Shown here in pieces: positions 1,326-55,899 of a stretch of 64,000 nucleotides of DNA. Every line of letters starts with the position of its first letter. The first letter of the stretch is position 1. Made by a program: the position numbers and the translations under genes. The DNA is taken from contig JAWMAR010000622.1 in NCBI GenBank assembly GCA_036785375.1, positions 744,001-808,000 of the forward strand, written 5' to 3'. The notes under the pieces are model-generated. The model ran no database searches and was not told the DNA's origin. It saw nothing but the letters and a program-made list of their open reading frames with translations. The stretch comes from Leucoraja ocellata (Eukaryota).

Positions 1326-1649
1326 CTGAATATTGAGGCATAGACCATTGCAACAGTCAAGAAACAATTAGACTGGTACATGGATATGAAAGGTTTGGAA
1401 AAATATGTGCCAAATGGAGGAAAGTTGGACGAGTGTAGATGGGGCATGTTCGTCGGGGTGGGCAAGTTGGGCCGAAGGGCCTGTTTCAACGCTGTATGTC
1501 TCTTTGACTCTACCTGCCTATCAAGCTCCCCACTCACCTGTGCCTCACTATTACCTGCCATGCTTTGTTGTGCATCCCCCCCTTCCCCAAGTCCCACCAC
1601 CTCCACCAAATCAGTTTGAAGATGTGTCTCGGCCCAGTATAGTACAGTT

Positions 1650-2125
1650 TGGTTTACAGATTTCTTTATTGTCACGCGCACCGAGGTACAGTGAAAAGCT
1701 GTTGTTGCGTGCTAACCAGTCAGCGGAAAGACAATACATGATTACAATCGAGTGACAAGGAAATAACATTCAGCGCCAGGTAATACCAGCAGAGTCCGAT
1801 CAAGGGTAGACCGAGGGTCACCAATGAGGTAGATAGTAGTTCTGCACTGCTCTCTGGTTGTAGTAGGGTGATTCAGTTGTCTGATAACAGCTGGGAAGAA
1901 ACTGTCCCTGCATCTGGAGGTGGGCGTTTTCACACTTCTGTACCTTTTGCCTAGTTGGTGAGGGGTGAAGAGCGAGTGGACAGGGTGTAACTCGTCTTTG
2001 ATTGTGCTGCTGGCCTTGCCGAGGCAGCGTGAGGTGTAGATGGAATCAATGGAAGGGAGGTTGGTTTGTGTGAGGGTCTGGGCTGCGTCCACAATTCGCA
2101 GCAATTTCTTGCGGTCTTGGATGGA
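1650..2125 (-). mobile_element. Rex1/Babar-type LINE 3' fragment (duplicate at ~11110-11578)
   Basis: Translation LPSIDSIYTSRCLGKASSTIKDELHPVHSLF...RYRSVKTPTSRCRDSFFPAVIRQLN is a typical Rex1/Babar C-terminus. Confidence 0.7.
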
Positions 2126-2565
2126 GCTGTGACTCGAGGCTGTGTCGCCTTTCCGTGCTCTCCAGAGATGCTGCCAGACCCGCTGTGTTTACTCCAGCAC
2201 TTTGTGTCCTTTTCTGATTATGCAGTCACCGCCACGACATTTCCCTTTAGAGAATTACAGACAGAAAAAAGTCAGAATAGTGTTGTCACAGGATGTTACT
2301 GGGGGGGGGGGGGGGGGGGGGGGTGTCAACTTAAATACGATGTGGTTGGTACCTTTCAGCACTGACTGCCCTCGCTGCTGCATTTTGTTCCAGTCCCACC
2401 TGTTTATCTGATCACTCACACGTATTTTTGTTCACGCTAAGTGTGGTCTGGGACCGCAGTGGGCGATCGAATACGACAGCATCTGCAGCCAGTGTCCAAA
2501 CCACACCAGTTAAACTATCTGCAGCTCGCCTCGCTAATGGGACAACGTTTCTTTGGTGTCGTTTA

Positions 2566-2935
2566 CATAGAAACATAGACACATAGAACATGGGTGCAGG
2601 AGTAGGCCATTCGGCCCTTCGAGCCTGCACCGCCATTCAATATGATCATGGCTGATCATCCAACTCAGTATCCTGTACCTGCCTTCTCTCCATACCCCCT
2701 GATCCCACAAGGACCACATCTAACCCCCTCTTAATTATAGCCCATGAACTGGCCTCAACTACCTTCTGTGGCAGAGAATTCCAAAGATTCACCACTCTCT
2801 GTGTGACAAATGTTTTTCTCATCTAGGTCCTAAAGGATTTCCCCCTTATCCTTAAATTGTCACCCTTGTTCTGGACTTCTCCAACATCGGGAACAATCTT
2901 CCTGCATCTAGCCTGTCCAACCCCTTAAGAATTTT
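2566..2935 (-). mobile_element. CR1 (HER1-like) LINE 3' fragment (duplicate ~12005-12390)
   Basis: Matches the other CR1 3' ends; (TTTCTATG)n tail. Confidence 0.85.
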
Positions 2936-3689
2936 AGATTTTAAATCACTTAATGTCCCCTCCCAGTCTAGACCCTGCCTGCCTATTGTTTCAAACAGCC
3001 CTATAATCCCCACAGAAACCGTCATCTTTGGCCTCCCATAAGATCAAAGGTGATAGGAGTAGAATTAGGTAATTTGGCCCATCAAGTCTACTACGCCATT
3101 GAATCATGGCTGATCTATATCTCCGTCTTAATCAAATGCCCCTACCCGCTCCCCTTAACCCCTGACACCCGTAATAATCAAGAATCTAACTCCCTCTGCC
3201 ATAATAATATCAATTGACATCCTCCACAGCCATGTATGGCCATGAATTCCACAGACTCACCACCCTCTGACAAAATATATTCCACCTCATCTCCTTCCTA
3301 AAAGATCGTCCTTTAATTCTGAGGCCATGATCTCTAGTCCTAGACACCCCACTAGTGGAAACATCCTCTCCACGTCCACTCTATCCCAAGCATCTCGCAT
3401 ATCCACAGTTTCACCAATGAATTCTTGGTGCATTCCATCCACGATCAAACCCTTGAAGGATTAGGGGACGGAGTGGGATAGTGGGAGAAATGGGCGCACA
3501 AACTTGTAAGGGAGAGGGAAGAGAGAGGGACGGGGTGGGAGTGTAGGGGGTGGGAGTGGAGGGGGAGGGAGTGGGGAGTGGAGGGGGAGGGAGTGGGGAG
3601 TGGAGGGGGTGGGGGGGGGTGGGGGATGGGTTACAGATTATAGATTATTACCTGGAATTGTACGAAGTAAAATATTCAAATATACTGAC

Positions 3690-3799
3690 CTGTACTGAGC
3701 TTGTCCTCTTGTAATACATGTAGCAAAATATAACTGAGATGAAGATGATTGTGGCGGCTGTAATAAGTACACGGCTTGAGACTCTTAATGGCTTAGAAC
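3690..3799 (-). CDS. SLAM/CD2-like copy A transmembrane exon
   Basis: Acceptor CTCTCTTCAG|; GSKPLRVSSRVLITAATIIFISVIFCYMYYKRTSSVQ; donor CAG|GTCAGT, or read-through VSIFEYFTSYNSR* to stop 3648-3650. Confidence 0.75.
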
Positions 3800-6654
3800 C
3801 TGAAGAGAGATCACTATTTCAGTTGCCAATCTATTGACGTGTTGGTGCATGGGAACAGATTCAGGGAGTTCAGGTCAGGTCAGTTTAGGTTAGTTTATTG
3901 TCACGTGTACCGGGCTACAGTGAAAAGCTTTTTTGTCGCGTGCTATCGAGTCAGCAGAAAGACAATACATCATTACAATCAATGCATTTATAGCATAGAT
4001 TCATGATAAGGGAACAACGTTTAGTGCAAGGTAAATTCCGGTCATGGAAGCCTTGTAACCCTGTCCTACTTAGGAAACCTGAATGGAAACCTCTGGAGAC
4101 TTTGCGCCCCACCTAAGGTTTCCGTGAGGTTCCCGGATGTTTTCGTCAGTCACCCTACCTGCTTCCACTACCTGCAACCTCTGGCAACCACCTGCAACCT
4201 CCAGAAACCGTGGCTGGGGCGCAAAGTCTCCAAAGGTTTCCGTTCAGGCTTCCTAAGTGGGACAGGGGCATTACTCCAGCATGGTGTGCCCGTTTAAATA
4301 CATCGATTACCTGGTTTCTTTCATCGGAAGGATTTGGGGATTTGTATAGGAACGAAAAAAATAGCCCCTATTTTATTTGAGAAATGTGCTTAGTGTGAAA
4401 ATATGAAGCCACAAACCTTCATGGGCAGGACAGAGCTGTGTTAGATCCACGCTCCGTGTCTCCTCACTAACAGGGTTCCTCACGGTGCAGTTGTACACGC
4501 TGTTGTTGTTGGGTAGAGGTATGGAGAGTGCCAGCCTTCTCCCTTCGTCAGTCAGTATGTGCGACCCATCTGCCGTGATCTTGTCATCTCCAGACCACCA
4601 AGTGTAGACTGGCTCGGTGCCGTGCTCCAGTGAACACACCAAGCTAACGTTACACACCCCTTCGGTGAAAGCTTCACTGATATTTATTATAGGTAATGAC
4701 ACGCGTTCTGTTTCAAAGAAAAGCAGATTTTTTTAAAAGCACAGTATTTAAAAAAAGCATCGGTAGACTTGCTGCCTTCCAGCGACAGAGACTCTGATAC
4801 GACCTTGACTACGGGTGCTGTCTGTACGGATTTTATGCCTTCTCCCAGGGACCGCGTAGGGTTTCTCCGGGTGCACCGGTTTTCTCCCACTCTCCAAAAT
4901 CGTACAGTAGGTTATTTAGCTTGGTATAATAGCAAAGTGTCCCTATTGTGTGTAGGGTAGTGTCAGTGCGCGGGGATCGCTGGTCCGTGAGGACTCGGTG
5001 GGCCCAAGGGCCTGTTTCCCGGCTGTATCTCTAAACTAAACTAAGTTGCGGCTTCTCAGCGCCAGAGACCCGGGTTCTGTCCTGACCTGACCACGGCTAC
5101 GGTCTGAACGGATTTTATTCGTTCTTCCCGTGACCGCGTGGGTTTGCCCATAATCCAAAGTTTGTTAGATTCCAGAATGTACAGTTTATTAAAAAAAAAA
5201 AGATTACCATAAATCTTCAGTTCTGTCACTTGTTCATGGAGCCCCTGATTCGTCCTTAAATTCATTTCATATAAACCTTGATCGTGTTCTGTTAGGTTCT
5301 GTATTTCCAGACTACAGTCCTTCAGGTTTAATCTGATTCCCTGTTTTTCATATTGTATTGGATTGTTTTGAGATTTCATACATAATTGAACCTTTCCTGT
5401 TGTTGGTGAACTGCGGTAATCCCAAGCAAGGACTGACATGTTTTCTCCTGAGATACATCCTGGTAACGTGACTGACTGTCCCAGTGTCCCATTCACCAAG
5501 CGACGAGTGCCTGGTTTCCCCGCAGTCTGTCCCAGACCTGAAACACAAGGACAAGATATTAGTGCCATCAGCTCTGGGGTGTTGGTGTTCATAGTTTCCC
5601 AGCCCAGCGGTGAGTTGTCCCAACCCTAATGGACAAGGGCAGCAGGCACATGAGGTCCAACTACGTCGACCATCGATCCAACTAGGTTTGTTGATGCTGT
5701 TACCATCCGCAGCTTTCGCCCTGATGCCCCAGCACACGGCAGCGAAAAAGATGGCGCTGGCTACCACCGGTTGGTAGAACATCTGCAGCATCTGACTGTA
5801 GACGTTGAAGGAGCTGAGCATTCCCAAACAGTACAGGCAGCCCCGTCCCTTCTTGTACATTGTCTCAGCGTTCCTGGACCAGTCCAGTTTACTGTCCAGG
5901 TACACTCCCAGGTATTTGTACCCCTTGGAAAGGTCGATGGATAAATAGTCGGANNNNNNNNNNNNNNNNNNNNNNNNNNNNNNNNNNNNNNNNNNNNNNN
6001 NNNNNNNNNNNNNNNNNNNNNNNNNNNNNNNNNNNNNNNNNNNNNNNNNNNNNNNNNNNNNNNNNNNNNNNNNNNNNNNNNNNNNNNNNNNNNCAGACGG
6101 ACAGACGGACAGAGAGAGTTTGGAATCAGGCTACTCAGCCCACCAACCCCACGCCAATCATCGATCACCTGATCATACATGTTCTATATTGTTCCATATT
6201 CGCATCCACTCCATACGCACTGCGGGCAATTAACCTACAACCCTACACGTCTTGGGGCTATGGGTGGGGGGGGGGGGGGGGGACTAGGGCACCACGTGGT
6301 TTGTTTTACACCGAGAGTAATGGGTGTCTGGAATGCGCTGCTAGAAATGGCGGTGGAGGGCAGATACGATAGTGGGGTTCAAGTGCCTTTTAGAAAAACA
6401 CATGGATATACAAGGAATACATAGATATGGATTGTGTGCGGCAGAGTAGTTTACATTAACTTGGCATCATGTTCGGCATGGACGTTGTGGGCTGAATGGC
6501 CTGTTCATGTGCTGTACTGTTCTATGTAGCCACCTTCTTCCAACCTACCGCCACCCACACCCCGAGCTCAAGGCATGGACTCACCTCCAGAGTCGCTCAA
6601 CAGCAACCAAAGTATCCCGATGAGGGAGTGAATCCCAGGGACTCTCCTGTCCAT
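3690..6654 (-). CDS. CD2/SLAM-family Ig receptor, copy A (leader-IgV-IgC2-TM); exons 6585-6654, 5208-5537, 4417-4707, 3690-3799
   Basis: GT-AG introns, all phase 1. Leader MDRRVPGIHSLIGILWLLLSDSGG; V domain VNGTLGQSVTLP..W..SLEIQNLTEHDQGLYEM lacking the F-strand Cys; C2 domain YERVSLP..CNVSLVCS..YTW..YNCTVRNPVS..C; TM VLITAATIIFISVIFCYMYY-KR. No cytoplasmic exon found. Confidence 0.85.
4056..4270. mobile_element. PIF/Harbinger-like MITE (~225 bp, long TIRs); also 12731-12956 and partial copies ~10655-10813, ~18958-19119
   Basis: Ends CCCTGTCC(C/T)ACTTAGGAAACC...GG(T/C)TTCCTAAGTGGGACAGGGGCA followed by TTA/TAA. Confidence 0.75.
4417..4707 (-). CDS. SLAM/CD2-like copy A IgC2 exon
   Basis: Acceptor TTTGAAACAG|, donor G|GTTTGT, 291 nt, four Cys and the NPVS motif. 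Confidence 0.9.
4758..5045 (+). mobile_element. tRNA-derived V-SINE (HE1-like); many other copies, e.g. 8520-8795(-), 10100-10350(-), 13447-13735(+), 16778-17050(-), 18360-18620(-), 20715-21028(-), 36675-36975(-), 60990-61290(+)
   Basis: tRNA-like head, V-domain-like core GGGTTTCTCCGGGTGC.CCGGTTT.CTCCCAC, (CTAAA)n tail. Confidence 0.8.
5208..5537 (-). CDS. SLAM/CD2-like copy A IgV exon
   Basis: Acceptor TGTGTTTCAG|, donor G|GTAAT, 330 nt open. Confidence 0.9.
5640..5940 (-). mobile_element. Rex1/Babar LINE RT-thumb fragment (duplicate ~14330-14627)
   Basis: YLGVYLDSKLDWSRNAETMYKKGRGCLYCLGMLSSFNV..MLQMFYQPVVASAIFFAAVCWG. Confidence 0.7.
6585..6654 (-). CDS. SLAM/CD2-like copy A leader exon
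   Basis: ATG at 6654, hydrophobic core LIGILWLLL, donor G|GTGAGT, 70 nt, phase 1. Confidence 0.8.
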
Positions 6655-7542
6655 GTCTTCTCTGAAGAGCAGGTTGTTTTTGAGATACAAGAGACTGCAG
6701 ATACTGGAATCTGTAGCAAGAAATACATAACTTGTTGGAGGATCTCAGCAGTTCGAGCAGCGTTTGTGGAGGCAAAGACATGCTGGACAAGACCCGCATC
6801 AGAACTCAGAGGGCAGAGGAAAGATAATTAATGTTCATAAGTCATAGGAGCAGAATTAGGCCATTCAGCCCATCGAGTCTACTCCCCCATTCACTTGGCT
6901 GATATATCTTTCCCTATCAAGCCCGGTCTCCTGCCTTCTCCCTATAACCCCTGAGACCCGCACTCTGATCCTAGACTCTCCCACTCGTGAAAACATCTCC
7001 TCCACATCCACACAATCAAGGTCTTTCACTATCCATTAAGTTTCAGTGAAATACCCCCTCATCCTTCTAAACTGCAGCGAGTACAGGCCCAATGCCATCA
7101 AACGCTATCATATGTCGACCACTCATCCCCGGGATCATTCTATTAAAATATCTTTTAAATGCTGTTATTTCTGATCTCAAATGTATGATTCATTTTCATG
7201 GAATCCAACCATTCATTTCAACCAACCAACGAACAATTCATGTTTCTTGCTCCCTCAGTATCATCTCAAGAGTCAAGAGCCAAGTGCGTTTTACCGTCAT
7301 ATGCCCCAGATGGGACAATGAAATTCTTACTTGCAGCAGCATTAGGCATGTAAATGTAGTANNNNNNNNNNNNNNNNNNNNNNNNNNNNNNNNNNNNNNN
7401 NNNNNNNNNNNNNNNNNNNNNNNNNNNNNNNNNNNNNNNNNNNNNNNNNNNNNNNNNNNNNNNNNNNNNNNNNNNNNNNNNNNNNNNNNNNNNNNNNNNN
7501 NNNNNNNNNNNNNNNNNNNNNNNNNNNNNTTGTTATTGTTAG

Positions 7543-8013
7543 AAACATAGAAACATAGAAATTAGGTGCAGGAGTAGGCCATTCGGCCCTTCGAGCCTGC
7601 ACCGCCATTCAATATGATCATGGCTGATCATCCAACTCAGTATCCCGTACCTGCCTTCTCTCCATACCCCCTGATCCCGTTAGCCACAAGGGCCACATCT
7701 AACTCACTCTTAAATATAGCCAATGAACCGGCCTCAACTACCCTCTGTGGCAGAGAGTTCCAGAGATTCACCACTCTCTGCGTGAAAAAAGTTCTTCTCA
7801 TCTCGGTTTTAAAGGATTTCCCCTTTATCCTTAAGCTGTGACCCCTTGTCCTAGACCTCCCTAACATCGGGAACAATCTTCCTGCATCTAGCCTGTCCAA
7901 CCCCTTAAGAATTTTGTAAGTTTCTATAAGATGCCCTCTCAATCTTCTAAATTCTAGAGAGTATAAACCAAGTCTATCCAGTCTTTCTTCATAAGACTGT
8001 CCTGACATCCCAG
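7543..8013 (-). mobile_element. Young CR1 3' fragment specific to duplication unit A
   Basis: Open 123-aa ORF; GTTAG repeated at both flanks; empty site in unit B at ~16226-16230. Confidence 0.9.
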
Positions 8014-10624
8014 GTTAGTTTTTATGTACATNNNNNNNNNNNNNNNNNNNNNNNNNNNNNNNNNNNNNNNNNNNNNNNNNNNNNNNNNNNNNNNNNNNNN
8101 NNNNNNNNNNNNNNNNNNNNNNNNNNNNNNNNNNNNNNNNNNNNNNNNNNNNNNNNNNNNNNNNNNNNNNNNNNNNNNNNNNNNNNNNNNNNNNNNNNNN
8201 NNNNNNNNNNNNNNNNNNNNNNNNNNNNNNNNNNNNNNNNNNNNNNNNNNNNNNNNNNNNNNNNNNNNNNNNNNNNNNNNNNNNNNNATGCTGGTTTAAA
8301 CCGAATATAGACACAAAATGCTATATTCAGCGGGAGTCTGCAGAAGGGGCTCGACCCGTAACGTCACCCATTCCTTATCTCCAGAGATGCTGCCTGTTCC
8401 GCTCAGTTACTCCAGCATTATGTGTCTATCTTATTTTTTATATTTAGAAATATATTCGCGCACATACGCACTTAATAGGCTTATATGTACATAGAAACAA
8501 ACAATAATAATACCAATAATAGTTTAGTTTAGTTTGGAGATACAGCGCGGAAACAGGTCCTTCGGCCCACCGAGTCCGCGCCGACCAGCGATCCCCGCAC
8601 ACTAACACTATCCTACACACATGATGGGCAATTTACAATTTTACCGAAGCGAATTAACCTACAAATCTGTATGTCTTTGGAATGTGGGAGGGAACCGGGG
8701 CGCCCGGGCAAAGCCCACACAGGGCACGGAGGGAGAACTTACAAACTCCGTAAAGACAGCACCCGTAGTCAGAATCGAACCCGGGTCTCTAGCGTTCCAT
8801 GTCTATGTAGTTCAGAGCTTATTTGGAGGTTGTTGAAGTGTTTCATAGGCTGATGGGAATCTGGGAATGGAGCCGATCAAGTTAATAGTTCAATGACGTG
8901 GCGGCGTAAGTTCAATGCACGCTACAGTGGCTGTAGAATTTAAACTCATATTCAGAACTTGGAGAATCAGCAAATGGTTTTAATATAGCCATAACCACAA
9001 CCGTCGCAGTAGAGACAGGAACTGGGACAACGTATTTGTTTGGTTTAATTTACAGAAAAGAAGTCCTTCGACCCAACGTAACCACGTCTATCATCGATCA
9101 CCCGTTCACGCTAGTCCATACGTCCATACATTCTACAAGCAGAATTATGCCATTAGGCCCATCAAGTCTACCTCGCCATGATAAATATTTCCCTCTCAAC
9201 AGCATTTTCCTGCCTTCGTCCCATAACCAAGAATCAACGAATCTCCAACTTAAAACGGCCTCCACACCCATCTCAGACTAAATAAATCTCTTCTCATCTC
9301 CTTCCTAAATGAACGAACTTGTATTCTGAGGCTGCGACCTCTGGTCCTAGACTCTTCCACCAGTGGAAACATCCTCTCCACATCCACTCTATCCAGGCCT
9401 TTCACTGTTCGGTAAGTCTCAATGAGGTCGCCCCCTCATCCTTCCAAACTCCAGCAAGTACAGGCCCAGTGCCATCAAATGCTAGTTCTGTGTTATCCTA
9501 CTTCCTCACCCACCCCCTACACAGTAGGGACAATTTACTGGGGGGCAATTAACCTACAAAGGTGGAGACCGGAGCACCCGGAGGAAACCTACCCACTAAC
9601 TTGCAAACTCCACAGAGACAGTACCCGAGGTCAGAATCGTTCTCTGATGCCCTGAGGTAGCGGCTCTACCACTGCACCACCCTTAAAGTTAAATAACTTT
9701 GTTCTAGCGATCAGAAAAGCTTGTTTAATACATAAAATGCAAACATTAATCATTGTTTTTTTGTATGTCAGCAATCTGAAACTTAAAAACGAGACTGTTA
9801 CATGTTTCAGACTTTCAATATTACAAAAGAATCATCGTTTAACAAACGCAACATGTTAATTAAATTAGCTGGCTAGACCCTTAAAAGTTTAACAGTTTTC
9901 TAGGATTTGCCGTGTAAAAACCCCCCAATATATTTATGAAAAGTAAAAAAGAAATATATACAAAATATTCTTTATAAGGAATATATATGTATCTCTACGT
10001 TCAATAGCGGCATAACCAGTGGTGTTAGTACCTGTTACGATATTCGCCAACATCAATGTGCATCGAACAAAACAAGCCACTAATCTATAAACTGCCCTGT
10101 TTAGTTTAGGTCAGATATACAGCATTTCGGCCCCAACGAGACCGCACCGTCCCGCATATTGACACTATCCTATACATATTAGGGGCAATTTCCACTTGTA
10201 CAAACCTGTATGTGGGAGTTAACTGAAGAACTCGGATATATCTCACGGGGAAAATGTACAACCTCCATACAGACAGCACCCGTGTTCAGGGATCGAACCT
10301 GGTCTCTGGCGCTGTGAGGCAGCAACTCTACCGCTGCGCCACCGTGCCGTCCTCAGAACTCAGCGTGATCAAGCAGCATCTGTGAAGGTGAACGGCCACG
10401 TTTCGGGACTGCGTTGAGGAATTCATGGAGTGGGGGGGGGGGGGGGGGGGGGTGATAAAGCAGCGGGAAGGAGATTGGTTGAATCAAGCGGGGGGGCAGG
10501 TTTCAGACTGTAGGGACCGGAACATGGACACACAATGCTGGAGTAGGAGCGGCGGTATCTCTGGAGAGAAGGAAGGGGCGACGTTTGGGATCAAGACCCC
10601 TTTTTCATCGCGGAACAGCCCCCC

Positions 10625-10657
<33 letters not shown>

Positions 10658-13102
10658 TGCGGTTCCCGGAGGTTGCAGGTGGTTGCCGTAGGTTGCAGGT
10701 AGTGGAAGCAGTAGTGAGACTGACAAAAGAACCTCCGGGAACAGCACGGAAACCTTGGGTGGGGCGCAAAGTCTCCAGAGGTTTCCGTTCAGGTTTCCTA
10801 AGTGGGACAAGGCATACATCTCCAAACCCGGACATCTTTGGAATGTTGGAGTGCGGGAAACCGGAGCACCCAGAGAAAACCCACGCAATCACAGGGAAAA
10901 CGGGTAACCTCCACACAGACAGCAGCCGAGGTCAGGATCGAACCCATGTCTCTGCCGCTGTGTATCGCTACCCACTCACCTGTGTCTCACTATTATCTGT
11001 CATGCTTTGTTGTGCCTCTCCCCCTTTTCCATCCCTCTTCTCCAACCACCTCCACCAAACCAGTTTGAAGACGTGTCTCGGCCCAGTATAGTACAGTTTG
11101 GTTTACAGATTTGTTTATTGTCACCTGCACCGAGGTACAGTGAAAAGCTGTTGTTGCGTGCTAACCAGTCAGCGGAAAGACAATACATGATTACAATCGA
11201 GTGACAAGGAAATAACATTCTGCGCCAGGTAAAACCAGCAGAGTCCGATCAAGGGTAGACCGAGGGTCAACGATGAGGGAGATAGTAGTTCTGCACTGCT
11301 CACTGGTTGTAGTAGGATGATTCAGTTGTCTGATAACAGCTGGGAAGAAACTGTCCCTGAATCTGGAGGTGTGCGTTTTCACACTTCTGTTACTTTTGCC
11401 TGGTTGGAGTGGGGTGAAGAGAGAGTGGACAGGGTGTAACTCATCTTTGATTGTTCTGCTGGCCTTGCCGAGGCAGCGTGAGGTGTAGATGGAATCAATG
11501 GAAGGGAGGTTGGTTTGTGCGATGGGCTGGGCTGCGTCCACAATTCGCAACAATTTCTTGCGGTCTTGGATGGAGCTGTGACTCGAGGCTGTGTCGCCTT
11601 TCCGTGCTCTCCAGAGATGCTGCCAGACCTGCTGTGTTTACACCAGCATTTTGTGTCCTTTTCTGATTATGCCTTATCAGTCACAGCCACGACATTTCCC
11701 TTTAGAGAATTACAGGCAGAAAAAAGGAAGAATAGTGTTGTCACAGGATGTTACTGGGGGGTTGTCAACTTAAATACGATGTGGTTGGTACCTTTCAGCA
11801 CTGACTGCCCTCTCTGCTGCATCTTGTTCCAGTCCCACCTGTTTATCTGATCACTCACACGTATTTTTGTTCACGCTACGTGTGGTCTGGGACCGCAGTG
11901 GGCGATCGAATACAACAGCATCTGCAGCCAGGGTCCAAACCACACGAGTTAAACTATCTGCAGCTCGCCTCGCTATTGGGACAACGTTTCTTTGGTGTCG
12001 TTTACATAGAAACATAGAAACATAGAAAATGGGTGCAGGTGTAGGCCATTCTGCCGTTCGAGCCTGCACCGCCATTCAATATGATAATGGCTGATCATCC
12101 AACTCGGTATCCTGTACCTACCTTCTCTCCATACCCCCTGATCCCTTTAGCCACAAGGGCCACATCTAACCCCCTCTTAATTATAGCCCATGAACTGGCC
12201 TCAACTACCTTCTGTGGCAGAGAATTCCAAAGATTCACCACTCTCTGTGTGAAAAATATTTTACTCATCTCGGTCCTAAAAGACTTCCCCCTTATCCTTA
12301 AACTGTGTGTGGCCGCTTGTGCTGGACGTCCACAACACCTGGAACAAACTTCCTGTATCTAGCCTGTCCAACCGCTTAAGAATTTTAGTGTTTAATATCA
12401 CTTTAATGTCCCCTCCCAGTCTAGCCCCTGCCTGCCTATTGTTTCAAACAGCCCTATAATCCCCACAGAAACCGTCATCTTTGGCCTCCCATAAGGTCAA
12501 AGGTGTTAGGAGTAGAATTAGGCGATTTGGCCCATCAAGTCTACTCCGGCATTGAATCATGGCTGATCTATATCTCCCTCTTTACCTAATTATCTTACCT
12601 GCTCCCCATAACCATTGACATCCGTAATAATCAAGAATCTAACTCCCTCTGCCATAATAATATCAATTGACGTCCTCCACAGCCATCTATAGCAATGAAT
12701 TCCACAGACTCATCACCCTCTGACTTCTTATAACCCTGTCCCACTTGGGAAACCTGAACGGAAACCCCTGGAGACTTTGCGCTCCACCTAAGGTTTCCGT
12801 GATGTTCAAGGACGTTTTTGTCAGTCTCCCTACCTGCTTCCACTACCTGCAACCTCCGGCAACCAGCTGCAACCTCCGGGAACCGCACGGAAACCTTGGG
12901 TGGGGCGCAAAGTCTCCAGGGGTTTCCGTTCAGGCTTCCTAAGTGGGACAGGGGCATTACTCCAGCATGGTGTGCTCGTTTAAATACATCGATTTCCTGG
13001 TTTCTTTCATCGGAAGGATTTGGGGATCTGTATAGGAACGAAAAAAATAGCCCCTATTTTATTTGAGAAATGTGCTTAGTGTGAAAATATGAAGCCACAA
13101 AC

Positions 13103-13393
13103 CTTCATGGGCAGGACAGAGCTGTGTTAGATCCACGCTCCGCGTCTCCTCACTAACAGGGTTCCCCACGGTGCAGTTGTACACGCAGTTGTTGTTGGGT
13201 AGAGGTATGGAGAGTGCCAGCCTTCTCCCTTCGTCAGTCAGTATGTGCGACCCATCTGCCGTGACCTTGTCATCTCCAGACCACCAAGTGTAGACTGGCT
13301 CGGTGCCGTGCTCCAGTGAACACACCAAGCTAACGTTACACACCCCTTCGGTGAAGGCTTCACTGATATTTATTATAGGTAATGACACGCGTT
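13103..13393 (-). CDS. SLAM/CD2-like copy B IgC2 exon
   Basis: 291 nt open, AG/GT flanks, 3 aa differences from copy A. Confidence 0.88.
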
Positions 13394-15362
13394 CTGTTTC
13401 AAAGAAAAGCAGATTTTTTTAAAAGCACAGTATTTAATAAAAACATCGGTAGACTTGCTGCCTTGCAGCGACAGAGACTCTGATACGACCTTGACTACGG
13501 GTGCTGTCTGTACGGATTTTATGCCTTCTCCCAGTGACCGCGTAGGGTTTCTCCGGGTGCACCGGTTTTCTCCCACTCTCCAAAATCGTACAGGTTTGTA
13601 GGTTATTTAGCTTGGTATAATAGTAAAGTGTCCCTATTGTGTGTAGGGTAGTGTCAGTGCGCGGGGATCGCTGGTCCGTGAGGACTCGGTGGGCCCAAGG
13701 GCCTGTTTCCCGGCTGTATCTCTAAACTAAACTATGTTGCGGCTTCTCAGCGCCAGAGACCCGGGTTCTGTCCTGACCACGGCTACGGTCTGAACGGATT
13801 TTATTCGTTCTTCCCGTGACCGCGTGGGTTTACCCACAATCCAAAGTTTGTTAGATTCAAGAATGTACAGTTTATTTAAAAAAAAAAATAAGATTACCAT
13901 AAATCTTCAGTTCTGTCACTTGTTCGTGGAGAGCCAGATTCGTCCTTAAGTTCATTTCATATAAACCTTGATCGTGTTCTGTTAGGTTCTGTATTTCCAG
14001 ACTACAGTCCTTCAGGTTTAACCTGATTCCCTGTTTGTTATATTGTATTGGACTGTTTTGAGTTTTTGTACATAATTGAACCTTTCCTGTTGTTGGTGAA
14101 CTGCGGTAATCCCAAGCAAGGACTGACATGTTTTCTCCTGGGATACATCCTGGTAACGTGACTGACTGCCCCAGTGTCCCATTCACCAAGCGACGAGTGC
14201 CTGGTTTCCCCGCAGCCTGTCCCAGACCTGAAACACAAGGACAAGATATTAGTGCCATCAGCTCTGGGGTGTTGGTGTTCATAGTTTCCCAGCCCAGCAG
14301 TGAGTTGTCCCAACCCCAATGGACAAGGGCAGCAGGCACATGAGGTCCAACTACGTCGACCATCGATCCAACTAGGTTTGTTGATCCTGTTAACATCCGC
14401 AGCTTTCGCCCTGATGTCCCAGCACACGGCAGCGAAAAAGATGGCGCTGGCTACCACCGGTTGGTAGAACATCTGCAGCATCTGACTGTAGACGTTGAAG
14501 GAGCTGACCATTCTCAAACAGTACAGGCAGCCCCGTCCCTTCTTGTACATTGCCTCAGCGTTCCTGGACCGGTCCAGTTTACTGTCCAGGTACACTCCCA
14601 GGTAGTTGTACCCCTTGGAAAGGTCGANNNNNNNNNNNNNNNNNNNNNNNNNNNNNNNNNNNNNNNNNNNNNNNNNNNNNNNNNNNNNNNNNNNNNNNNN
14701 NNNNNNNNNNNNNNNNNNNNNNNNNNNNNNNNNNNNNNNNNNNNNNNNNNNNNNNNNNNNNNNNNNNNNNNNNNNNNNNNNNNNNNNNNNNNNNNNNNNN
14801 NNNNNNNNNNNNNNNNNNNNNNNNNNNNNNACTCAGCCCACCAAGCCCACGCCAATCATCGATCACCTGATCATACAAGTTCTATATAATTCCATATTCG
14901 CATCCGCTCCATACGCACTGCGGGCAATTAACCTTCAACCCTACACGTCTTGGGGCTATGGGGGTGGGGGTGGGGGGGGGGGGGGGGGGTGGACTAGGGC
15001 ACCACGTGGTTTGTTTTACACCGAGAGTAATGGGTGTCTGGAAAGCGCTGCTAGAAATGACGGTGGAGGGCAGGTACAATAGTGGGGTGTTTGCCTTTTA
15101 GAAAAACACATGTATATACAAGGAATACATAGATATGGATTGTGTGCGGCAGAGTAGTTTACATTAACTTGGCATCATGTTTGACATGGACGTTGTGGGC
15201 TGAATGGCCTGTTCATGTGCTGTACTGTTCTATGTAGCCACCTTCTTCCAACCTACCGCCACACCCACCCCGAGCTCAAGGCATGGACTCACCTCCAGAG
15301 TCGTTCAACAGCAGCCAAAGTATCCCGATGAGGGAGTGAATCCCAGGGACTCTCCTGTCCAT
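13103..15362 (-). CDS. CD2/SLAM-family gene copy B (leader-IgV-IgC2, TM exon deleted); exons 15293-15362, 13898-14227, 13103-13393, possible read-through to stop 13059
   Basis: All three exons open with splice sites matching copy A; no TM exon in unit B. Confidence 0.8.
13898..14227 (-). CDS. SLAM/CD2-like copy B IgV exon
   Basis: 330 nt open, AG/GT flanks, 8 aa differences from copy A. Confidence 0.88.
15293..15362 (-). CDS. SLAM/CD2-like copy B leader exon
   Basis: MDRRVPGIHSLIGILWLLLNDSGG, donor GTGAGT. Confidence 0.8.
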
Positions 15363-18300
15363 GACTTCTCTGAAGAGCAGGTTGTTATTGAGATACAAAA
15401 GACTGCAGATACTGGAATCTGTAGCAAGAAATACATAACTTGTTGGAGGATCTCAGCAGTTCGAGCAGCGTTTGTGGAGGCAAAGACATGCTGGACAAGA
15501 TCCGCATCAGAACTCAGAGGCCAGAGGAAAGATAATTAATGTTCATAAGTCATAGGAGCAGAATTAGGCCATTCAGCCCATCGAGTCTACTCCCCCATTC
15601 ACTTGGCTGATGTATCTTTCCCTCTCAAGACCGGTCTCCTGCCTTCTCCCCATAACCCCTGACACCCGCACTCTGATCCTAGACTCTCCCACTCGTGAAA
15701 ACATCCCCTCCACATCCACACAATCAAGGTCTTTCACTATCCATTAAGTTTCAGTGAAATACCCCCTCATCCTTCTAAACTGCAGCGAGTACAGGCCCAA
15801 TGCCACCAAACGCTATCATATGTCGACCCACTCATCCCCGGGATCATTCTATTAAAATATCTTTTAAATGCTGTTATGTCTGAACTCAAATGTATGAATC
15901 CTTTTCATGGAATCCAACCATTCATTTCAACCAACCAACGAACAATTCATGTTTCTTGCTCCCTCAGTATCATCTCAAGAGTCAAGAGCCAAGTGCGTTT
16001 TACCGTCATATGCCCCAGATGGAACAATGAAAGTCTTACTTGCAGCAGCATTAGGCTTGTAAATATAGTANNNNNNNNNNNNNNNNNNNNNNNNNNNNNN
16101 NNNNNNNNNNNNNNNNNNNNNNNNNNNNNNNNNNNNNNNNNNNNNNNNNNNNNNNNNNNNNNNNNNNNNNNNNNNNNNNNNNNNNNNNNNNNNNNNNNNN
16201 NNNNNNNNNNNNNNNNNTTGTTATTGTTAGTTTTTATGTACATNNNNNNNNNNNNNNNNNNNNNNNNNNNNNNNNNNNNNNNNNNNNNNNNNNNNNNNNN
16301 NNNNNNNNNNNNNNNNNNNNNNNNNNNNNNNNNNNNNNNNNNNNNNNNNNNNNNNNNNNNNNNNNNNNNNNNNNNNNNNNNNNNNNNNNNNNNNNNNNNN
16401 NNNNNNNNNNNNNNNNNNNNNNNNNNNNNNNNNNNNNNNNNNNNNNNNNNNNNNNNNNNNNNNNNNNNNNNNNNNNNNNNNNNNNNNNNNNNNNNNNNNN
16501 NNNNNNNNNNNNNNNNNNNNNNNNNNNNNNNNNNNATGCTGGTTTATACCGAATATAGACACAAAATGCTATATTCAGCGGGAGTCTGCAGAAGGGGCTC
16601 GACCCGTAACGTCACCCATTCCTTATCTCCAGAGATGCTGCCTGTTCCGCTGAGTTACTCCAGCATTATGTGTCTATCTTATTTTTTATATTTAGAAATA
16701 TATTCGCGCACGTACGCACTTAATAGGCTTATATGTACATAGAAACAAACAATAATAATACAATAATAACAATAATAGTTTAGTTTAGTTTGGAGATACA
16801 GCACGGAAACAGGCCCTTCGGCCCACCGAGTCCACGCCGACCAGCGATCCCCACACACTAACACTATCCTACACACACGATGGGCAATTTACAATTTTAC
16901 CGAAGCGAATTAACCTACAAATCTGTATGCCTTTGGAATGTGGGAGGGAACCGGGGCACGCGGGGAAAGCCCACGCAGGGCACGGAGGGAGAACTTACAA
17001 ACTCCGTAAAGACAGCACCCGTAGTCAGAATCGAACCCGGTCTCTAGCGTTCCATGTCTATGTAGTTCAGAGCTTATTTGGAGGTTGTCGAAGTGCTTCA
17101 TGGTCTGATGGGAATCTGGGAATGGAGCCGATCAAGTTAATAGTCCAATGACGTGGCGGTGTAAGTTCAATGCTCGCTACAGTGGCTGTAGAATTTAAAC
17201 TCAAATTCAGAACTTGGAGAATCAGCAAGTGGTTTTAATAATAGCCATAACCACAACCGTCGCAGTAGAGACAGGAACTGGGTCAACGTATTTGTTTGGT
17301 TTAATTTACAGAAAATAAGTCCTTCGACCCAACGTAACCACGTCTATCATCGATCACCCGTTCACGCTAGTCCATAAGTCCATACATTCTACAAGCAGAA
17401 TTATGCCATTAGGCCCATCAAGTCTACCTCGCCATGATAAATATTTCCCTCTCAATAGCATTTTCCTGCCTTCGTCCCATAACCAAGAATCAACGAATCT
17501 CCACCTTAAAACGGCCTCCACAGCCATCTCAGACTAAATACATCTCTTCTCATCTCCTTCCTAAATGAACGAACTTGTATTCTGAGGCGGTGACCTCTGG
17601 TCCTAGACTCTTCCACCAGTGGGAACATCCTCTCCACATCCACTCTATCCAGGCCTTTCACTGTTCGGTAAGTCTCAATGAGGTTCACCCCTCCCTCATC
17701 CTTCCAAACTCGAGCAAGTACAGGCCCAGTGCCTTCAAATGCTAGTTCTGTGTTATCCGACTTCCACCCCACCCCGTACACAGTAGGGGCAATTTACTGA
17801 GGGGCAATTAACCTACAATGGTGTAACCAGAGCACCCGGAGGAAACCTACCCACTAACTTGCAAACTCCACAGAGACAGTACCCGAGGTCAGAATCGAAC
17901 TCCGTTATCTGATGCCCTGAGGTAGCGGCTCTACCACTGCACCACCCTTAAATTTAAATAACTTTGTTCTAGCGATCAGAAAAGCTTGTTTAATATATAA
18001 GATGCAAAAATCAATCATTGTTTTTTTGTATGTCAGCAATCTGAATCTTAAAAACGAGACTGTTACATGTTTCAGACGTTCAATATTACAAAAGAATCAT
18101 CGTTTAACAAATGAAACGTGTTAATTAATTTAGCTGGCTAGACCCTTAAAAAGTTTAAGTTTTCTAGGATCTGCCGTGTAAAAACCCCAATATATTTATG
18201 AAAAGAAAAAAATAAATATATACAAAATATTCTTTATAAGAAATATATATGTATATCTACGTTCAATAGCGGCTTAACCAGTGGTGTTAGTACCTGTCAC

Positions 18301-19387
18301 GATATTCGCCAACATCAATGTGCTTCGAACAAAACAAGCCACTAATATATAAACTGCCCTGTTCAGTTTAGGTCAGATATACAGCGCGGAAACAGGCATT
18401 TCGGCCCAACCGACCAGCGATCCCCGCATATTGACACTATCCTATACATACTAGGGGCAATTTCCACATACAAACCTGTGTGTGGGAGTTAACTGAATAA
18501 CTCGGAGATAACTCACGGGAAAATGTACAAGCTCCATACAGACAGCACCCGTGTTCAGGGATCAAACCCTGGTCTCTGGTGCTGTGAGGCAGCAACTCTA
18601 CCGCTGCACCACCGTGCCTTCCTCAGCACTCAGCGTGATCAAGCAGCATCTGTGAAGGTGAACGGCCACGATTCGGGACTGCGTTGAGGAATTCATGGAG
18701 TGGGGGTGGGTGATAAAGCAGCGGGAAGGAGATTGGTTGAATCAAGCGGGGGAGGGGGCAGGCTTCAGACTGTAGGGACCGGAAGATGGACACACAATGC
18801 TGGAGTAGGAGCGGCGGTATATCTGGAGAGAAGGAAGGGGCGACGTTTCGCATCGAGACAGCCCCCCCCCCCCCCCCCCCCACAAGTCGGCGCCGACCAG
18901 CGTTCACCCCGTACTCCAACACCCCGGACACCTTTACATTTCTTTTTCCAAAATAGGTTCCGTGCGGTTCCCGGAGGTTGCAGGTGGTTGCCGGGGGTTG
19001 CAGGTAGTGGAAGCAGGTAGTGAGACTGACAAAAACCTCCAGGAACCGCACGGAAACCTTGGGTGGAGCGCAAAGTCTCCAGAGGTTTCCGTTCAGCTTT
19101 CCTAAGTGGGACAGGGGCATAAATCTCCAAACGCGGTCGTCTTTGGAATGTTGGAGTGCGGGAAACCGGAGCACCCAGAGAAAACCCACTCAATCACAGG
19201 GAAAACGGGTAAACTCCACACAGACAGCAGCCGAGGTCAGGATCGAACCCGGGTCTCTGCCGCTGTAACACTACCGCTGCACTGGAAAAGGTTAACAGAG
19301 ACATTTGTATGTGTTCCGTCTCTAATTGGAGGTGCGATGTGGGTGGGGAAAGGAGCACGGCCCATTTAAATTCCAATTCACACCCAT

Positions 19388-25500: not shown

Positions 25501-28500
25501 CAGGGAATGCAGACCCAGATGGGGAGGTATTTCTTTCATCGGGGGGTGGTCAATCTGTGGAATTATTTGCCACAGAAGGCTGTGGAGGCCAAGTCAATTG
25601 ATATTGTTTAAGGCAGAGATTCTCGACTAGTACGGGTGTCTCGATTTATATGGAGATCGCAGGAGAATTATGTTAGGAGGGAGAGATAGATCAGGCATGA
25701 TGGAGTGACGTGGTACACTTGATGGGCCGAATGACCTTATTCTGTTCCTATCACATGACATTATGATCTTGTGAACAGGGATTAAAATCCTGTCCTAACC
25801 CATCCGGACCCGACTGGATCCCATTTTTTAAAACGCAACCTGCGTTCGTAACCCTTGCATTCCCTCTCTCTCCGTCCCTCCCCCACCCTGCCTCTCTTGC
25901 TAATTTCACCTCCTTCGTCATCACGTCGTCCCCAGCCAACAATGGACCATTGTGGGCTCCACCTTTCCCGAGTGATCTATGCCGGCACTGCTTTGTTCTG
26001 TACCTTCCCATACCTCAATATCCTTCTCCCCCGATTCTGAATCTGATGAAGGGTCTCGACCCGAAAGCTCACCAATACCTTTTTCTTCCAGAGATGCTGC
26101 CTGACCCGCTGAGTTACCCATGCATTTTGTGTCTATCCTCTGCGTCCACTCTTGCGGGTTGTCTCATTATGTCTCGGCTTGTACTCGCTAGAATTTAGAA
26201 GATTGAGGGGGGATCTTATAGAAACTTACAAAAGTCTTAAGGGGTTGGACAGGCTAGATGCAGGAAGATTGTTACCGATGTTGGGGAAGTCCAGGACAAG
26301 GGATCACAGCTTAAGGATAAGGGGGATATCCTTTAAGACCGAGATGAGAAAAAACATTTTCACACAGAGAGTGGTGAATCCCTGGAACTCTCTGCCACAG
26401 AAGGTAGTTGAGGCCAGTTCATTGGCTATATTTAAGATGGAGTTAGATGTGGCCCTTGTGGCTAAAGGGATCAGGGGGCACGGAGAGAAGGCAGGTACAG
26501 GATACTGAGTTGGATGGTCATCCATGATCATATTGAATGGCGGTGCAGGCTCGAAGGGCCGAATGGCCTCTACTCCTGCACCTATTTTCTATGTATCAAT
26601 GTATCTATGATCTGAAGAGGGGTCCCGACCCGAACTGCCCCTTTAGACTTCATACATTAGAATTTAGATACAGTGCGGGAACAGGCTCTTCGACCCACAG
26701 AATCCCCACCTACCAGCGATCACCCCGTACACTATCACTATCCTACACACAGGGACAAATTTACAGAAACGAATTACCCGACAAATCCAGCACGTCTTTG
26801 TGCTGTGGGAGGAAAACCGGAAAACCCGGAGAAAACCCGCGCGGTCACAGAGAGAACGTACAAACTCCACACAGGCCGAATCCGCAGTCTCCACCCAGGA
26901 ACCAGATTCTCTGGCGCTGTAAAATGCCCCTGTCCCACTTAGGAAACCTGAGCGGAATCCTCTGGAGACTTTACGCCCCACCCAAGGTTTCCGTGCGGTT
27001 CCCGGAGGTTGCAGGTGGTTGCCGGAGGTTGCGGGTAGTGGAAGCGGGTAGGGAGACTGACAAAAACCTCCGGGAACCGCACGAAACCCTTGGGTGGGGC
27101 ACAAAGTCTCCAGAGGTTTCCGTTCAGGTTTCCTAAGTGGGACAGGGGCATGAGGGAGCAACTCTACGCTGCACCTCAACTATCCATGTTCTCCAGCGAT
27201 GCTGCCTGACCAGTTGAGGTACTCCAGCATTTTGTGTTCTCGTTATCATCTTCTCCTTTCGGGAAACTCCCGCGCCCCATAGATTGGGGGCGCGTAGAGC
27301 GACTAATTGATTTCATCCACCACGGGCCAGCAGCGGCCATGTGGGCCAAATGGCCGCATGCACGGCTGCAGTAAATTTGGGGAGGAAACAACAGATGTCT
27401 CACATTCAGGCCGATGCCGTGTGACACTGGGCTTGGCGTTGTATGGGGGAGGTGCGGGCGCCGGCAGGTCGCCCACTCTCACAGGCATTTCACCTCTGAC
27501 CAAGTCACCAACTTGCATTAAGCTAAGCCCGTGGGCTGCCTGTGGGTAGATGACCTATCTTTGAATATTTAGTTGTGAGTCTTGTTGCTAAGTGTGCAGG
27601 TCTCATGCAGGTGTGCAGGTCTCATGCTCTCGCTGCGGTTTCATGAGGAAAAGCGTAGCCTTCAACCACCGTCCTCGCTACTAAATCGTGCCCATCGCTC
27701 TACATTCGACCAGACCTGATCGAAGTATGCAACATTATGATAGGCATAGAGGGGGTGGACAGTCAGAACCATTTTTCCAGGGTGAAAATGTCAAAGACTC
27801 GAGGGCCCAGCTTTTCATTCAGAGGAGCAAAGTTCAAATGAGATTGTCAAAGAGTTATAGTCACCCAGTGGGGAACAGGCCCTTCGGCCCAACTTGCCCA
27901 TACCGGCCAATATGTGTTCGGCCCATACCCCTTTAAACCTAACCTATGGTATTGGCGGTAGGGTGTTGACATGGATTGAAAATTGGTTGGCTGACCGGAA
28001 GCAAAGAGTAGGAGTGAACGGGTCCTTTTCACAATGGCAGGCAGTGGCGAGTGGAGTGCCGCAAGGCTCGGTGTTGGGGCCGCGACTGTTTACCATATAT
28101 ATTAATGATTTGGAAGAGGAAATTAGGAGCAACACTAGCAAGTTTGCGGATGGCACAAAGGTGGTGGCAGTGTGAACTGTGAAGAGGATGTTAGGAGGTT
28201 GCAGGGTGACCTGGACAGGTTGAGTGAGTGGGCAGATGCGTGGCAGATGCTGTATAATATAGATAAATGTGAGGTTATCCACTTTGGCGGCAAAAACAAG
28301 GGGGCAGATTATTATCTCCATGGGGTTAGGTTAGGTAAGGGGGAGGTGGGCGTCCTTGTACACCGGTCACTGAAAGTTATCGTGCAGGTACAGCAGGCAG
28401 TGAAGAAAGCTAATGGAAATGTTGGCCTTAATAACAAGAGGATTTCAGTATAGGAGTAAAGAGGTTCTTCTGCAGTTGTACAGGGCTCTGGTGAGACCAC

Positions 28501-55824: not shown

Positions 55825-55899
55825 TTTAACTCCTCCTCTTCCTGGTTCATAATGTTTTCATTGACGCCCAGCTGCTGAATATGGGCGGTCACGGTGGCG

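Follow-up and report, generated by a model that had tools for sequence, protein, structure and literature searches.

Tandem copies of a CD2/SLAM-family gene in Leucoraja ocellata

The window, i.e. the whole 64-kb stretch of Leucoraja ocellata DNA that was analysed, contains a real pair of tandem paralogues of a CD2/SLAM-family gene, which bears out the original prediction of a duplicated SLAM/CD2 unit. Self-BLAST aligns the two units in four collinear blocks that are 91-96% identical. It also places unit B upstream of unit A on the coding strand, with the unique 5' flank adjoining B and not A.

1525-10961, minus strand: tandem unit A, the downstream copy; a complete short-tailed SLAM-like gene plus ~4.3 kb of duplicated upstream sequence
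10962-10966: tandem junction, where the end of the upstream sequence meets the 3' flank of the gene; N-free, crossed by a contig of another skate
10967-19266, minus strand: tandem unit B, the upstream copy, lacking a transmembrane (TM) exon; past 19266 it continues into the original 5' flank

Outside exons, A and B differ at 344 of 6825 nt (5.0% substitutions); smaller indels (39 events) and a LINE insertion of 476 bp separate them further. The tandem junction and the deletion junction of B lie inside a single N-free block (8288-14627). The tandem junction is also present in the DNA of another skate, in a 210-nt contig (X4 record 16) that matches 10933-11142 without gaps; its short side extends 29-34 letters past the junction, which is borderline for a 31-letter rule, and its left 29 letters match the upstream flank of B at 27/29 positions versus 12/29 for the flank of A. 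The B ectodomain is identical at 195/206 amino acids (aa) to that of A, and at 195/206 to that of the Leucoraja erinacea orthologue. Because B is equally near to this orthologue and to A, and because the junction occurs in another skate, the single recent duplication proposed originally is doubtful; judging from these sequences, the duplication may be older than L. ocellata. A and B are not resolved as sisters in a protein tree, in which the ectodomains of skate copies cluster more with their own species or genus than with copies of their gene type (mostly with weak support).

Copy A is made of the following exons.

6585-6654, minus strand: leader exon; were a possible acceptor further upstream (6710) used, the exon would be 126 nt long, phase 1-1 and in frame
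5208-5537, minus strand: IgV exon, phase 1-1; would take the IgC2 exon of B in frame
4417-4707, minus strand: IgC2 exon, placed by alignment
3690-3799, minus strand: TM exon, phase 1 to 0, missing from B; 85% to the L. erinacea orthologue by tblastn
1665-2244, minus strand: terminal exon, coding for 8 residues, no ITSM; AATAAA at 1670

The L. erinacea orthologue (XP_055522193.1, P0017) has the same leader, IgV, IgC2, TM and terminal exons, with an ectodomain identical to that of A at 190/206 positions, and its model splices the TM exon to the equivalent of the terminal exon of A and B. For that species one membrane-bound model was retrieved, in contrast to the tandem pair found here, one member of which lacks the TM exon. 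A candidate cytoplasmic exon (2353-2399 in A, 11793-11839 in B) was rejected, having a weak acceptor, no counterpart in the P0017 and P0016 models, and zero RNA depth in its bin. The cytoplasmic ITSM motif (TxYxxV/I), a mark of the signalling SLAM receptors coupled to SAP/EAT-2, is absent from the A tail, whose hydropathy is 2.29, and from B; it is present in a paralogous skate type (e.g. P0004), and this ITSM-bearing paralogue, known from other skates, was not found within the 64-kb window. As predicted from its exons, copy A is a short-tailed, ITSM-less receptor.

Both copies resemble CD2/SLAM-family proteins. IgV and IgC2 are each encoded on their own phase-1 exon, with IgV N-terminal and IgC2 membrane-proximal, which is the CD2/SLAM layout. 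The B IgV is recognised as a V-set by Pfam (32.6 bits, cut-off 26), and IgC2 matches Ig families weakly, that of B falling under the cut-offs. The B and F strands in the model of the B IgV contain no Cys, and IgC2 has four Cys (152, 158, 207 and 226) that are nearly invariant in 36 aligned sequences, a pattern that would provide for two disulfides. An IgV without the canonical B-F disulfide and an IgC2 with two disulfides are described for the CD2/SLAM family (PMC12084948). The best match among solved relatives is SLAMF6 (E 1e-7 for the B IgV), which also heads the family profile (4e-18) before CEA (1.5e-14); Foldseek ranks SLAM first (TM-score 0.80), with nectin-1 a close second. SLAMF8/SLAMF9 and SLAMF6/SLAMF1 share with the skate copies a V plus C2 ectodomain, a V without the canonical disulfide and C2 Cys for two, and SLAMF8/9 are also like A in having a tail without ITSM (PMC12084948). 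As that source presents them, the nine mammalian SLAMF members are type I membrane or GPI-anchored proteins, none of them a secreted gene, whereas B is secreted by prediction.

Copy B has lost its transmembrane exon

The features of copy B, and of the deletion within it, are these.

15293-15362, minus strand: leader exon; signal peptide, 23 codons, phase 1, with the private change S20N
13898-14227, minus strand: IgV exon; SLAM-like fold, V-set lacking the canonical B-F disulfide
13103-13393, minus strand: IgC2 exon; four conserved Cys plus a private Cys (S203C) that deletes one sequon
13058-13063, minus strand: intronic AATAAA, 40 nt past the IgC2 donor; it overlaps the stop codon that would end a read-through of 14 residues, and A has it too
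12734-12953: MITE-like inverted-repeat element beside the breakpoint; A copy at 4059-4267
12724-12727: deletion junction; 778 nt of A absent, 2-3 filler bases
11114-11699, minus strand: terminal exon; strong acceptor at 11699, AATAAA at 11119

Alignment of the two units shows that B lacks 778 nt of A (3273-4050), with a gap that opens after A:3272/B:12724 and closes at A:4052/B:12727; the loss had been put at ~780 bp, including the TM exon, with a junction at ~12724-12730. Microhomology at the junction is at most 1 nt. The missing stretch contains the 110-nt TM exon of A, which is the sole exon removed and of which the 64-kb window holds no further copy. Since the three N runs of B all lie upstream of IgV, they are unable to hide a TM exon. 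The MITE-like element is ~220 nt long, with arms (12734-12816 and 12871-12953) that are 89% complementary, and further copies are found at 10655-10812, 18958-19122 and 26924-27151. The right breakpoint lies 7-10 nt outside an arm, so that it does adjoin a MITE end, as had been noticed. Of the 8660 positions that a random 778-bp deletion could take in the unit, 610 (7%) would cost the gene its TM exon and no other; among the 4285 positions at which an exon is touched, the share is 14%. Clean excision of this exon is therefore not in itself a sign of selection.

The remainder of the gene is intact. Over their 691 nt, the leader, IgV and IgC2 exons are free of stops, frameshifts and splice lesions, their lengths equal those of A and their AG/GT sites are kept, in agreement with the original description. 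By default splicing, B is predicted to encode a 237-aa secreted V-C2 protein. Transcription would start from the original upstream flank, and splicing of IgC2 to the terminal exon would shift the frame by one, adding a 7-residue polar tail with two Cys before a stop. Because this stop falls inside the last exon, whose AATAAA is intact, nonsense-mediated decay would be avoided. Splicing of IgV to IgC2 is seen in a skate contig from a probable RNA run (X15 record 15), and the leader of B has the same hydropathy as that of A. A GPI anchor was rejected by inspection, the tail being short and polar. As far as its exons predict, B thus has the architecture of a decoy, i.e. a signal peptide, an intact candidate binding domain and no membrane anchor. 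The product would be glycosylated, and its three extra Cys might link it into disulfide-bonded oligomers; folding or export might suffer from S20N in the signal peptide or from an unpaired Cys in IgC2. The intronic AATAAA after IgC2 is a possible second route to a soluble form. From the proposal of a membrane-bound and secreted (decoy) pair born of one recent duplication, the TM-less and by default secreted B stands on its exon anatomy, and the single recent origin is doubtful.

Four of the 24 listed sequencing runs were compared over 10850-14620, where contig depths are not copy numbers and were left out of the reasoning. These four runs lack the private letter of B at 13187 where it is covered with listed counts, the RNA run X24 having the other letter in 35/35 reads, and therefore have no bearing on expression of B. 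Further private letters of B lie at plus-strand positions 14141, 14216 and 11685. No transcript of B was seen in these runs, and neither the deletion junction nor a joint of IgC2 with the last exon is among the 15 joints listed out of a larger set (1044 further). A search for runs found none among 20 listed with half of the words of B; none of those listed is RNA, so this search is silent on expression.

Constraint and divergence

Exons of A and B differ at 22/691 nt, fewer than expected from the divergence outside exons given above (Fisher p 0.032), and nonsynonymous sites differ at 2.5% versus 5.0% (p 0.012). B has four private amino-acid changes (A has three) against ~13 expected under neutrality with half of the divergence belonging to B (Poisson p 0.003). 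The dN/dS ratio of the pair, 0.48, is not significantly below 1 (p 0.19), and the exons of B would be frameshift-free by chance in 27% of cases. From these comparisons the coding exons of B look constrained. With a recent deletion, this constraint would predate the loss of the TM exon and would be uninformative on the soluble form. Six of the eight IgV differences between A and B fall in the C'-C'' region and the FG loop, which makes it uncertain that both bind the same ligand, as had been supposed. Among 17 skate sequences, variability of IgV does not significantly exceed that of IgC2 (16/109 versus 10/97, p 0.40), and positive selection is therefore not claimed.

The peptide TQNSPIQYNK, put forward as B-specific, is absent from A but occurs in four proteins of relatives, three of which are isoforms of an ITSM-type gene. 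The peptide across the join of IgC2 to the last exon and the Cys203 peptide are absent from all 118 relatives fetched.

Models of relatives without a transmembrane segment

A hydropathy screen covered 80 chondrichthyan proteins, with 31 further retrieved proteins outside it; three had no anchor motif and were unscored, and 14 of the remaining 77 were flagged. Two of these were dropped, P0016 because it has a TM exon and P0014 because it runs into unrelated sequence. The resulting 12/77 TM-less models, all automatic predictions, include four Hemitrygon genes with one common short tail, three of them with a full leader. The Rhinoraja model P0007 starts with the TM exon of its neighbour read in another frame, for which reason the Rhinoraja models were downgraded as independent support. 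Truncation and fusion of neighbours are reported as a known annotation error in such families (PMC6557307). A scan of metagenomes gave 88 pattern matches and no relative, and a short-protein search with IgC2 gave no match. Among the papers listed by our literature search, in which subscription papers were thinly covered, none deals with SLAM genes of cartilaginous fish that lack the TM part. An expansion of SLAM genes in Xenopus was reportedly described by Guselnikov in 2011, and that work may already include secreted members.

A proposed soluble binder and its alternatives

We tentatively favour, at a little short of even confidence, the reading in which B, a genuine tandem paralogue that has lost the TM exon of a short-tailed skate SLAM-like receptor, acts as a secreted V-domain binder. 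That the secreted protein is made at all we regard as evenly balanced, and that B has been kept by selection for such a role as doubtful. Soluble B would most likely occupy the IgV face of membrane SLAM-like receptors (A or the ITSM paralogue), or a pathogen ligand, and cell-cell signalling would be damped or tuned. CD2/SLAM members typically bind through IgV, to themselves or within the family. Co-folding of A-IgV with B-IgV scored 0.49 against 0.00 for the best of three controls, with at least 76% of contacts shared between runs and a partner pLDDT of at least 82. The mark used was reached by 51/78 solved and 2/108 mismatched pairs; it was reached at scores of 0.60 or below by only 5/78 solved pairs and by all four passing mismatches. 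The model lends weak support to A-IgV/B-IgV pairing, and the score may show likeness only, because similar SLAM V domains are solved.

Soluble forms are described elsewhere in the family. sCD150 is a soluble member without a TM region (PMC4339833), and A43 is a viral CD48 decoy that blocks CD48:2B4 (PMC6448830). Both resemble B as soluble V-C2 ectodomains, but their source is a gene with a TM region, through splicing or shedding, whereas in B the deletion of an exon would make the soluble state a fixed property of the genome. Soluble SLAMF6 is reported to stimulate or inhibit depending on isoform (PMC12191382), and a decoy is therefore not the sole outcome to be considered for B. Secreted paralogues are already known from other receptor families, CEACAM/PSG and LAIR2, in which duplicated Ig receptors became secreted by loss of their membrane part and are proposed as soluble decoys (PMC2832619, PMC5856374); LAIR2 is named as secreted (PMC6557307). 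They differ from the case of B in family, in having cloned transcripts (horse), and in mechanism, which in these sources is by stop codons, splice-site loss or exon skipping.

Somewhat less probable, yet a serious contender, is that birth and death in the array has left B as a young pseudogene or a neutral structural variant, an ex-membrane receptor whose TM exon was lost by repair beside a MITE and any transcript or protein of which is a by-product. The breakpoint fits this, with a MITE arm close by, filler bases at the junction and an absence of long homology, as do the chances computed above for a TM-only deletion (7-14%) and for an open frame (P 0.27). So do the grouping of skate ectodomains by species or genus, as in fast-turnover arrays, although mostly with weak support, and an Amblyraja model (P0016) whose upstream copy is without leader and half of IgV. 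Against it stand the lesion-free 691 nt, the few private changes, the intact terminal exon and poly(A) signal, and the recurrence in stingrays of TM-less models with leaders.

In a quite improbable alternative, which the original proposal did not raise, B and A form one gene. The IgC2 donor of B (phase 1) would skip the B terminal exon and the A leader to join the A IgV (phase 1), giving a 482-aa V-C2-V-C2-TM protein built like Ly9/CD229. If the acceptor at 6710 were used in its place, the product would have 524 aa, again in frame, and the A signal peptide would be internal. Neither join meets a stop or a change of frame, and B lies upstream of A, but two AATAAA (13063 and 11119) and a strong terminal-exon acceptor precede A. 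In Amblyraja radiata XP_032903632.1 IgC2 is joined to IgV in this manner, ahead of the same TM exon and tail, and the protein shows 27% identity to gerbil Ly9 in an alignment of 353 columns; a Mobula model (P0001) is V-V-C2-TM. The Amblyraja protein is, however, an automatic prediction without signal peptide, and fused neighbours are the annotation error cited above (PMC6557307). No IgC2-to-IgV joint was seen among the 15 joints listed (1044 further), in runs without B. Ly9/CD229 (SLAMF3) derives its V-C2-V-C2 order from duplicated IgV-C2 units (PMC9101303, PMC12084948), an order that splicing from B into A would reproduce in frame; Ly9 is an established single gene with a long tail and two ITSMs, whereas the skate fusion is hypothetical and its tail ITSM-less.

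Very unlikely, in our estimate, is that intronic polyadenylation after IgC2, leaving a 14-residue tail, makes the soluble form from either copy, the TM deletion merely dedicating B to it. The AATAAA at +40 and the following T-rich run are identical in A and B, and two Rhinoraja models (P0007 and P0034) end in the same read-through, although possibly as default model ends. In X24, from another organism and at low depth, the bin with the intron start has a depth of 3.1, no more than the share of 15 exon bases, and no reads lie at 13007/13044. Equally unlikely is that the assembly set two haplotypes in tandem as A and B, or that a mis-join produced the deletion: no listed run holds half of the words of B (best 0.49), the deletion junction is unspanned among the pieces listed and N runs lie at matching places in A and B, but the 5% non-exon difference, the indels and LINE insertion, the N-free junctions and the borderline contig of the other skate across the tandem junction argue against an assembly artefact.

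Implications for the SLAM family

If B is expressed, it would be a skate SLAM-family member that is soluble by gene structure, not by splicing or shedding; if it is silent, it is an ordinary broken duplicate. Taken with the stingray models, a secreted B would mean that the SLAM arrays of batoids follow the CEACAM/PSG mode of evolution, in which some paralogues signal, others do not and yet others are secreted, with differences on the binding face. Such a pattern is usually linked to pathogen pressure. A read-through form, if it exists, would show how a SLAM receptor can go from two domains to four in a single step. It is improbable, but conceivable, that a Ly9-type receptor is in the making here and that the locus represents an intermediate stage still in use: after the upstream copy had lost its TM exon, one promoter would serve two products, a secreted two-domain protein and a membrane V-C2-V-C2 receptor of four domains spliced into the downstream copy, according to the poly(A) site used. 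The Amblyraja join would then mark a repeated or shared skate event, independent of mammalian Ly9. Finally, slamf is among the genes drawn on the MHC chromosome in a white-shark figure (PMC10751288), and the array may therefore belong to the ancestral MHC region.

Organization of the two SLAM-family genes

Self-BLAST resolves A (1525-10961) and B (10967-19266) as head-to-tail duplicates sharing four blocks of 91-96% identity. The A gene corresponds exon by exon to Leucoraja erinacea XP_055522193.1, and the nearest proteins, from L. erinacea (IgV at 90-93%), Amblyraja, and Rhinoraja, place the window in a skate.

Exons of the A and B genes
6585-6654, minus, A leader
5208-5537, minus, A IgV
4417-4707, minus, A IgC2
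3690-3799, minus, A transmembrane (TM) exon
from 2244, minus, A terminal exon (AATAAA at 1670)
15293-15362, minus, B leader
13898-14227, minus, B IgV
13103-13393, minus, B IgC2
from 11699, minus, B terminal exon (AATAAA at 11119)

B lacks 778 nt found in A beyond position 3272, whose only coding content is the TM exon, and no second copy of this exon lies elsewhere in the window. The original prediction, that B is joined across ~780 bp without the TM exon and that a breakpoint adjoins a MITE end, is thus borne out, the right breakpoint lying 7-10 nt from an arm of a MITE-like inverted repeat. The junction carries 2-3 filler bases and lacks extended homology; transposon-linked repair is a plausible origin of the deletion.

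The terminal exon of A has lost 6 nt (2222; B equivalent 11672) that B retains, which leaves the A tail two residues shorter than the Leucoraja and Amblyraja tails. The leader exons of both copies have a possible upstream acceptor giving an in-frame, stop-free extension (6585-6710 and 15293-15418, minus), and Rhinoraja models use sequence matching this extended exon.

The best match of B IgV among solved chains is SLAMF6 (E 1e-7), which a family profile also ranks over CEA and CD2, and the top fold match of the predicted model (pLDDT 88) is SLAM (TM-score 0.80). Cys are missing from IgV strands B and F, and four are conserved in IgC2, a layout as described for SLAMF in the available part of PMC12084948. 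An ITSM is missing from the tail of A but present in a second skate gene type; the TM and tail exons of that type have no match in the window. A is therefore similar in layout to SLAMF8/9, and B is an anchorless copy of a receptor already without a signalling motif.

Predicted product of B

Because the phase-1 end of IgC2 meets a terminal exon that usually begins in phase 0, direct splicing of the two shifts the frame, and a stop follows after seven residues, two of them Cys. The predicted product has 237 aa. A stop in the last exon is not expected to trigger nonsense-mediated decay, which the predicted transcript should thus escape. B is the upstream copy on the coding strand and retains the unique 5' flank, whereas the duplicated DNA upstream of A extends for only 4.3 kb, so B would be at least as likely as A to be transcribed. 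We tentatively propose, at a little short of an even chance, that B encodes a secreted modulator of 237 aa.

Selection on the B ectodomain

That B is instead a young pseudogene is a reading we consider doubtful but quite possible: its frameshift-free exons have a 27% chance under neutrality, and a random deletion of this size would take the TM exon alone with a 7% chance per event. Exons of A and B differ at 22/691 nt (3.2%; p 0.032 against non-exon sequence), at 5.3% of synonymous and 2.5% of nonsynonymous sites, a ratio of 0.48 that is not significantly under 1. Compared with 15 skate ectodomains, B has four private amino-acid changes and A three; at the five remaining differing positions, B has the residue of the L. 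erinacea orthologue. Since neutrality predicts ~13 private changes in B (p 0.003, with half of the divergence assigned to B), its ectodomain appears to have been constrained for most of its history, possibly all of it before the deletion.

Six of the eight IgV differences between A and B fall in strands C, C', C'', F, and G or their loops (strand names are our own assignment on the predicted model), which we take to be the binding face. The same holds for 13/16 multi-state IgV positions among skates; IgV variability is not significantly above that of IgC2 (p 0.40). The placement of these differences suggests that A and B may have different ligands, and the shared ligand originally supposed may not hold. 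Joint folding of A IgV and B IgV gave weak support for pairing (score 0.49, best control 0.00).

Reads from other skates and possible alternative transcripts

Four of the 24 listed runs were compared with B. In one contig of a probable RNA run IgV is spliced to IgC2; two further contigs exit IgC2 into 34 letters without a place in B, which are probably TM exons. At 13187, a private site of B, 35/35 RNA reads and both DNA runs carry the other letter, and the sampled animals are therefore without this form of B.

Splicing of B into A, giving a four-domain protein, is improbable. The B donor could be joined in frame to the A IgV acceptor, for a 482-aa product, or to the possible acceptor at 6710 (524 aa), and the Amblyraja radiata model XP_032903632.1 has precisely this IgC2-to-IgV join and aligns along gerbil Ly9. 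Ly9 has four domains according to the part of PMC9101303 available. However, two poly(A) signals and a strong terminal acceptor stand before A, and automatic annotation is, as far as the excerpt of PMC6557307 goes, prone to fusing or truncating such genes. A soluble product from intronic polyadenylation is very improbable: both copies have an AATAAA 40 nt into the intron that follows IgC2, and this signal could yield a second soluble form, but the low-depth RNA of another skate has no read-through past IgC2.

Age and authenticity of the duplication

An assembly artefact, in either the duplication or the deletion, is scarcely credible, since the copies are separated by 344 differences in 6825 non-exon sites (5.0%), 39 smaller indel events, and a LINE 3' fragment found in A only, both junctions lie in an N-free block (8288-14627), and the tandem junction is crossed by a DNA contig of another skate. 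The LINE fragment (7538-8014), ~900 nt upstream of the A start codon, could set the two promoters apart. The crossing contig (210 nt, X4 record 16) spans 10933-11142 gap-free; its initial 29 letters agree with the upstream flank at 27 positions and with the A 3' flank at 12, its short side of 29-34 letters being borderline against our rule of 31. The tandem junction is therefore probably shared by other animals and may have arisen before this species, so that of the single recent duplication first proposed, the tandem pair stands and the recency is doubtful. The deletion junction is absent from the run pieces listed, which repeats crowd.

Relatives and known soluble forms

Of the chondrichthyan proteins scored, 77 in all, 12 have no TM segment following IgC2, and all 12 are automatic models: four Hemitrygon genes with one common short tail, three Hypanus and two Rhinoraja proteins, and three TM-skipping isoforms (Narcine and Mustelus). 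One of the Rhinoraja models opens with the TM exon of its neighbour in another frame, so some of these models are likely splits. Taken together, the 12 render soluble batoid SLAMs plausible. The three-domain V-V-C2-TM model of Mobula hypostoma (XP_062905755.1) likewise points to shuffling at the exon level, or to mis-fusion, among the SLAM arrays of batoids.

In the accessible parts of earlier work, soluble SLAM forms arise through splicing (sCD150, PMC4339833) or shedding (the viral A43 decoy, PMC6448830), soluble SLAMF6 can either boost or inhibit (PMC12191382), and secreted CEACAM paralogues are common after duplication (PMC5856374, PMC2832619). PMC11882424, likewise seen in excerpt, cites a paper on Xenopus SLAM expansion that may already describe secreted members. 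Our literature search, in which subscription papers were thinly covered, found no study of TM-less SLAM genes in cartilaginous fish. B is a real, new case of a kind in which secreted paralogues and soluble SLAM forms are already known.

Other features of the window

A TRIM gene in the same orientation as B, and upstream of it, has a RING/B-box exon (55446-55877, minus) and a PRY-SPRY (B30.2) exon (43953-44582, minus) 11 kb apart. It is flanked by a second large duplication, inverted (34052-41757 and 56100-64000, 93-96% identity), which extends to the right end of the window. Each arm matches the alternative N-terminal exon carried by ITSM-type SLAM isoforms of L. erinacea (P0026), at 34383-34538 (plus, 94%) and 63550-63692 (minus, ~83%, frameshifted); the minus-strand match faces B from 48 kb upstream, and Pfam has no match for this exon. 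Fourteen N runs, each 132-344 nt long (5954-6093 and 14628-14830 among them), occupy corresponding places in the two duplications, often adjoining simple repeats, and could be gaps or masking. Broken reverse-transcriptase (LINE) pieces lie at 51809-53873 (plus), within the TRIM gene region.
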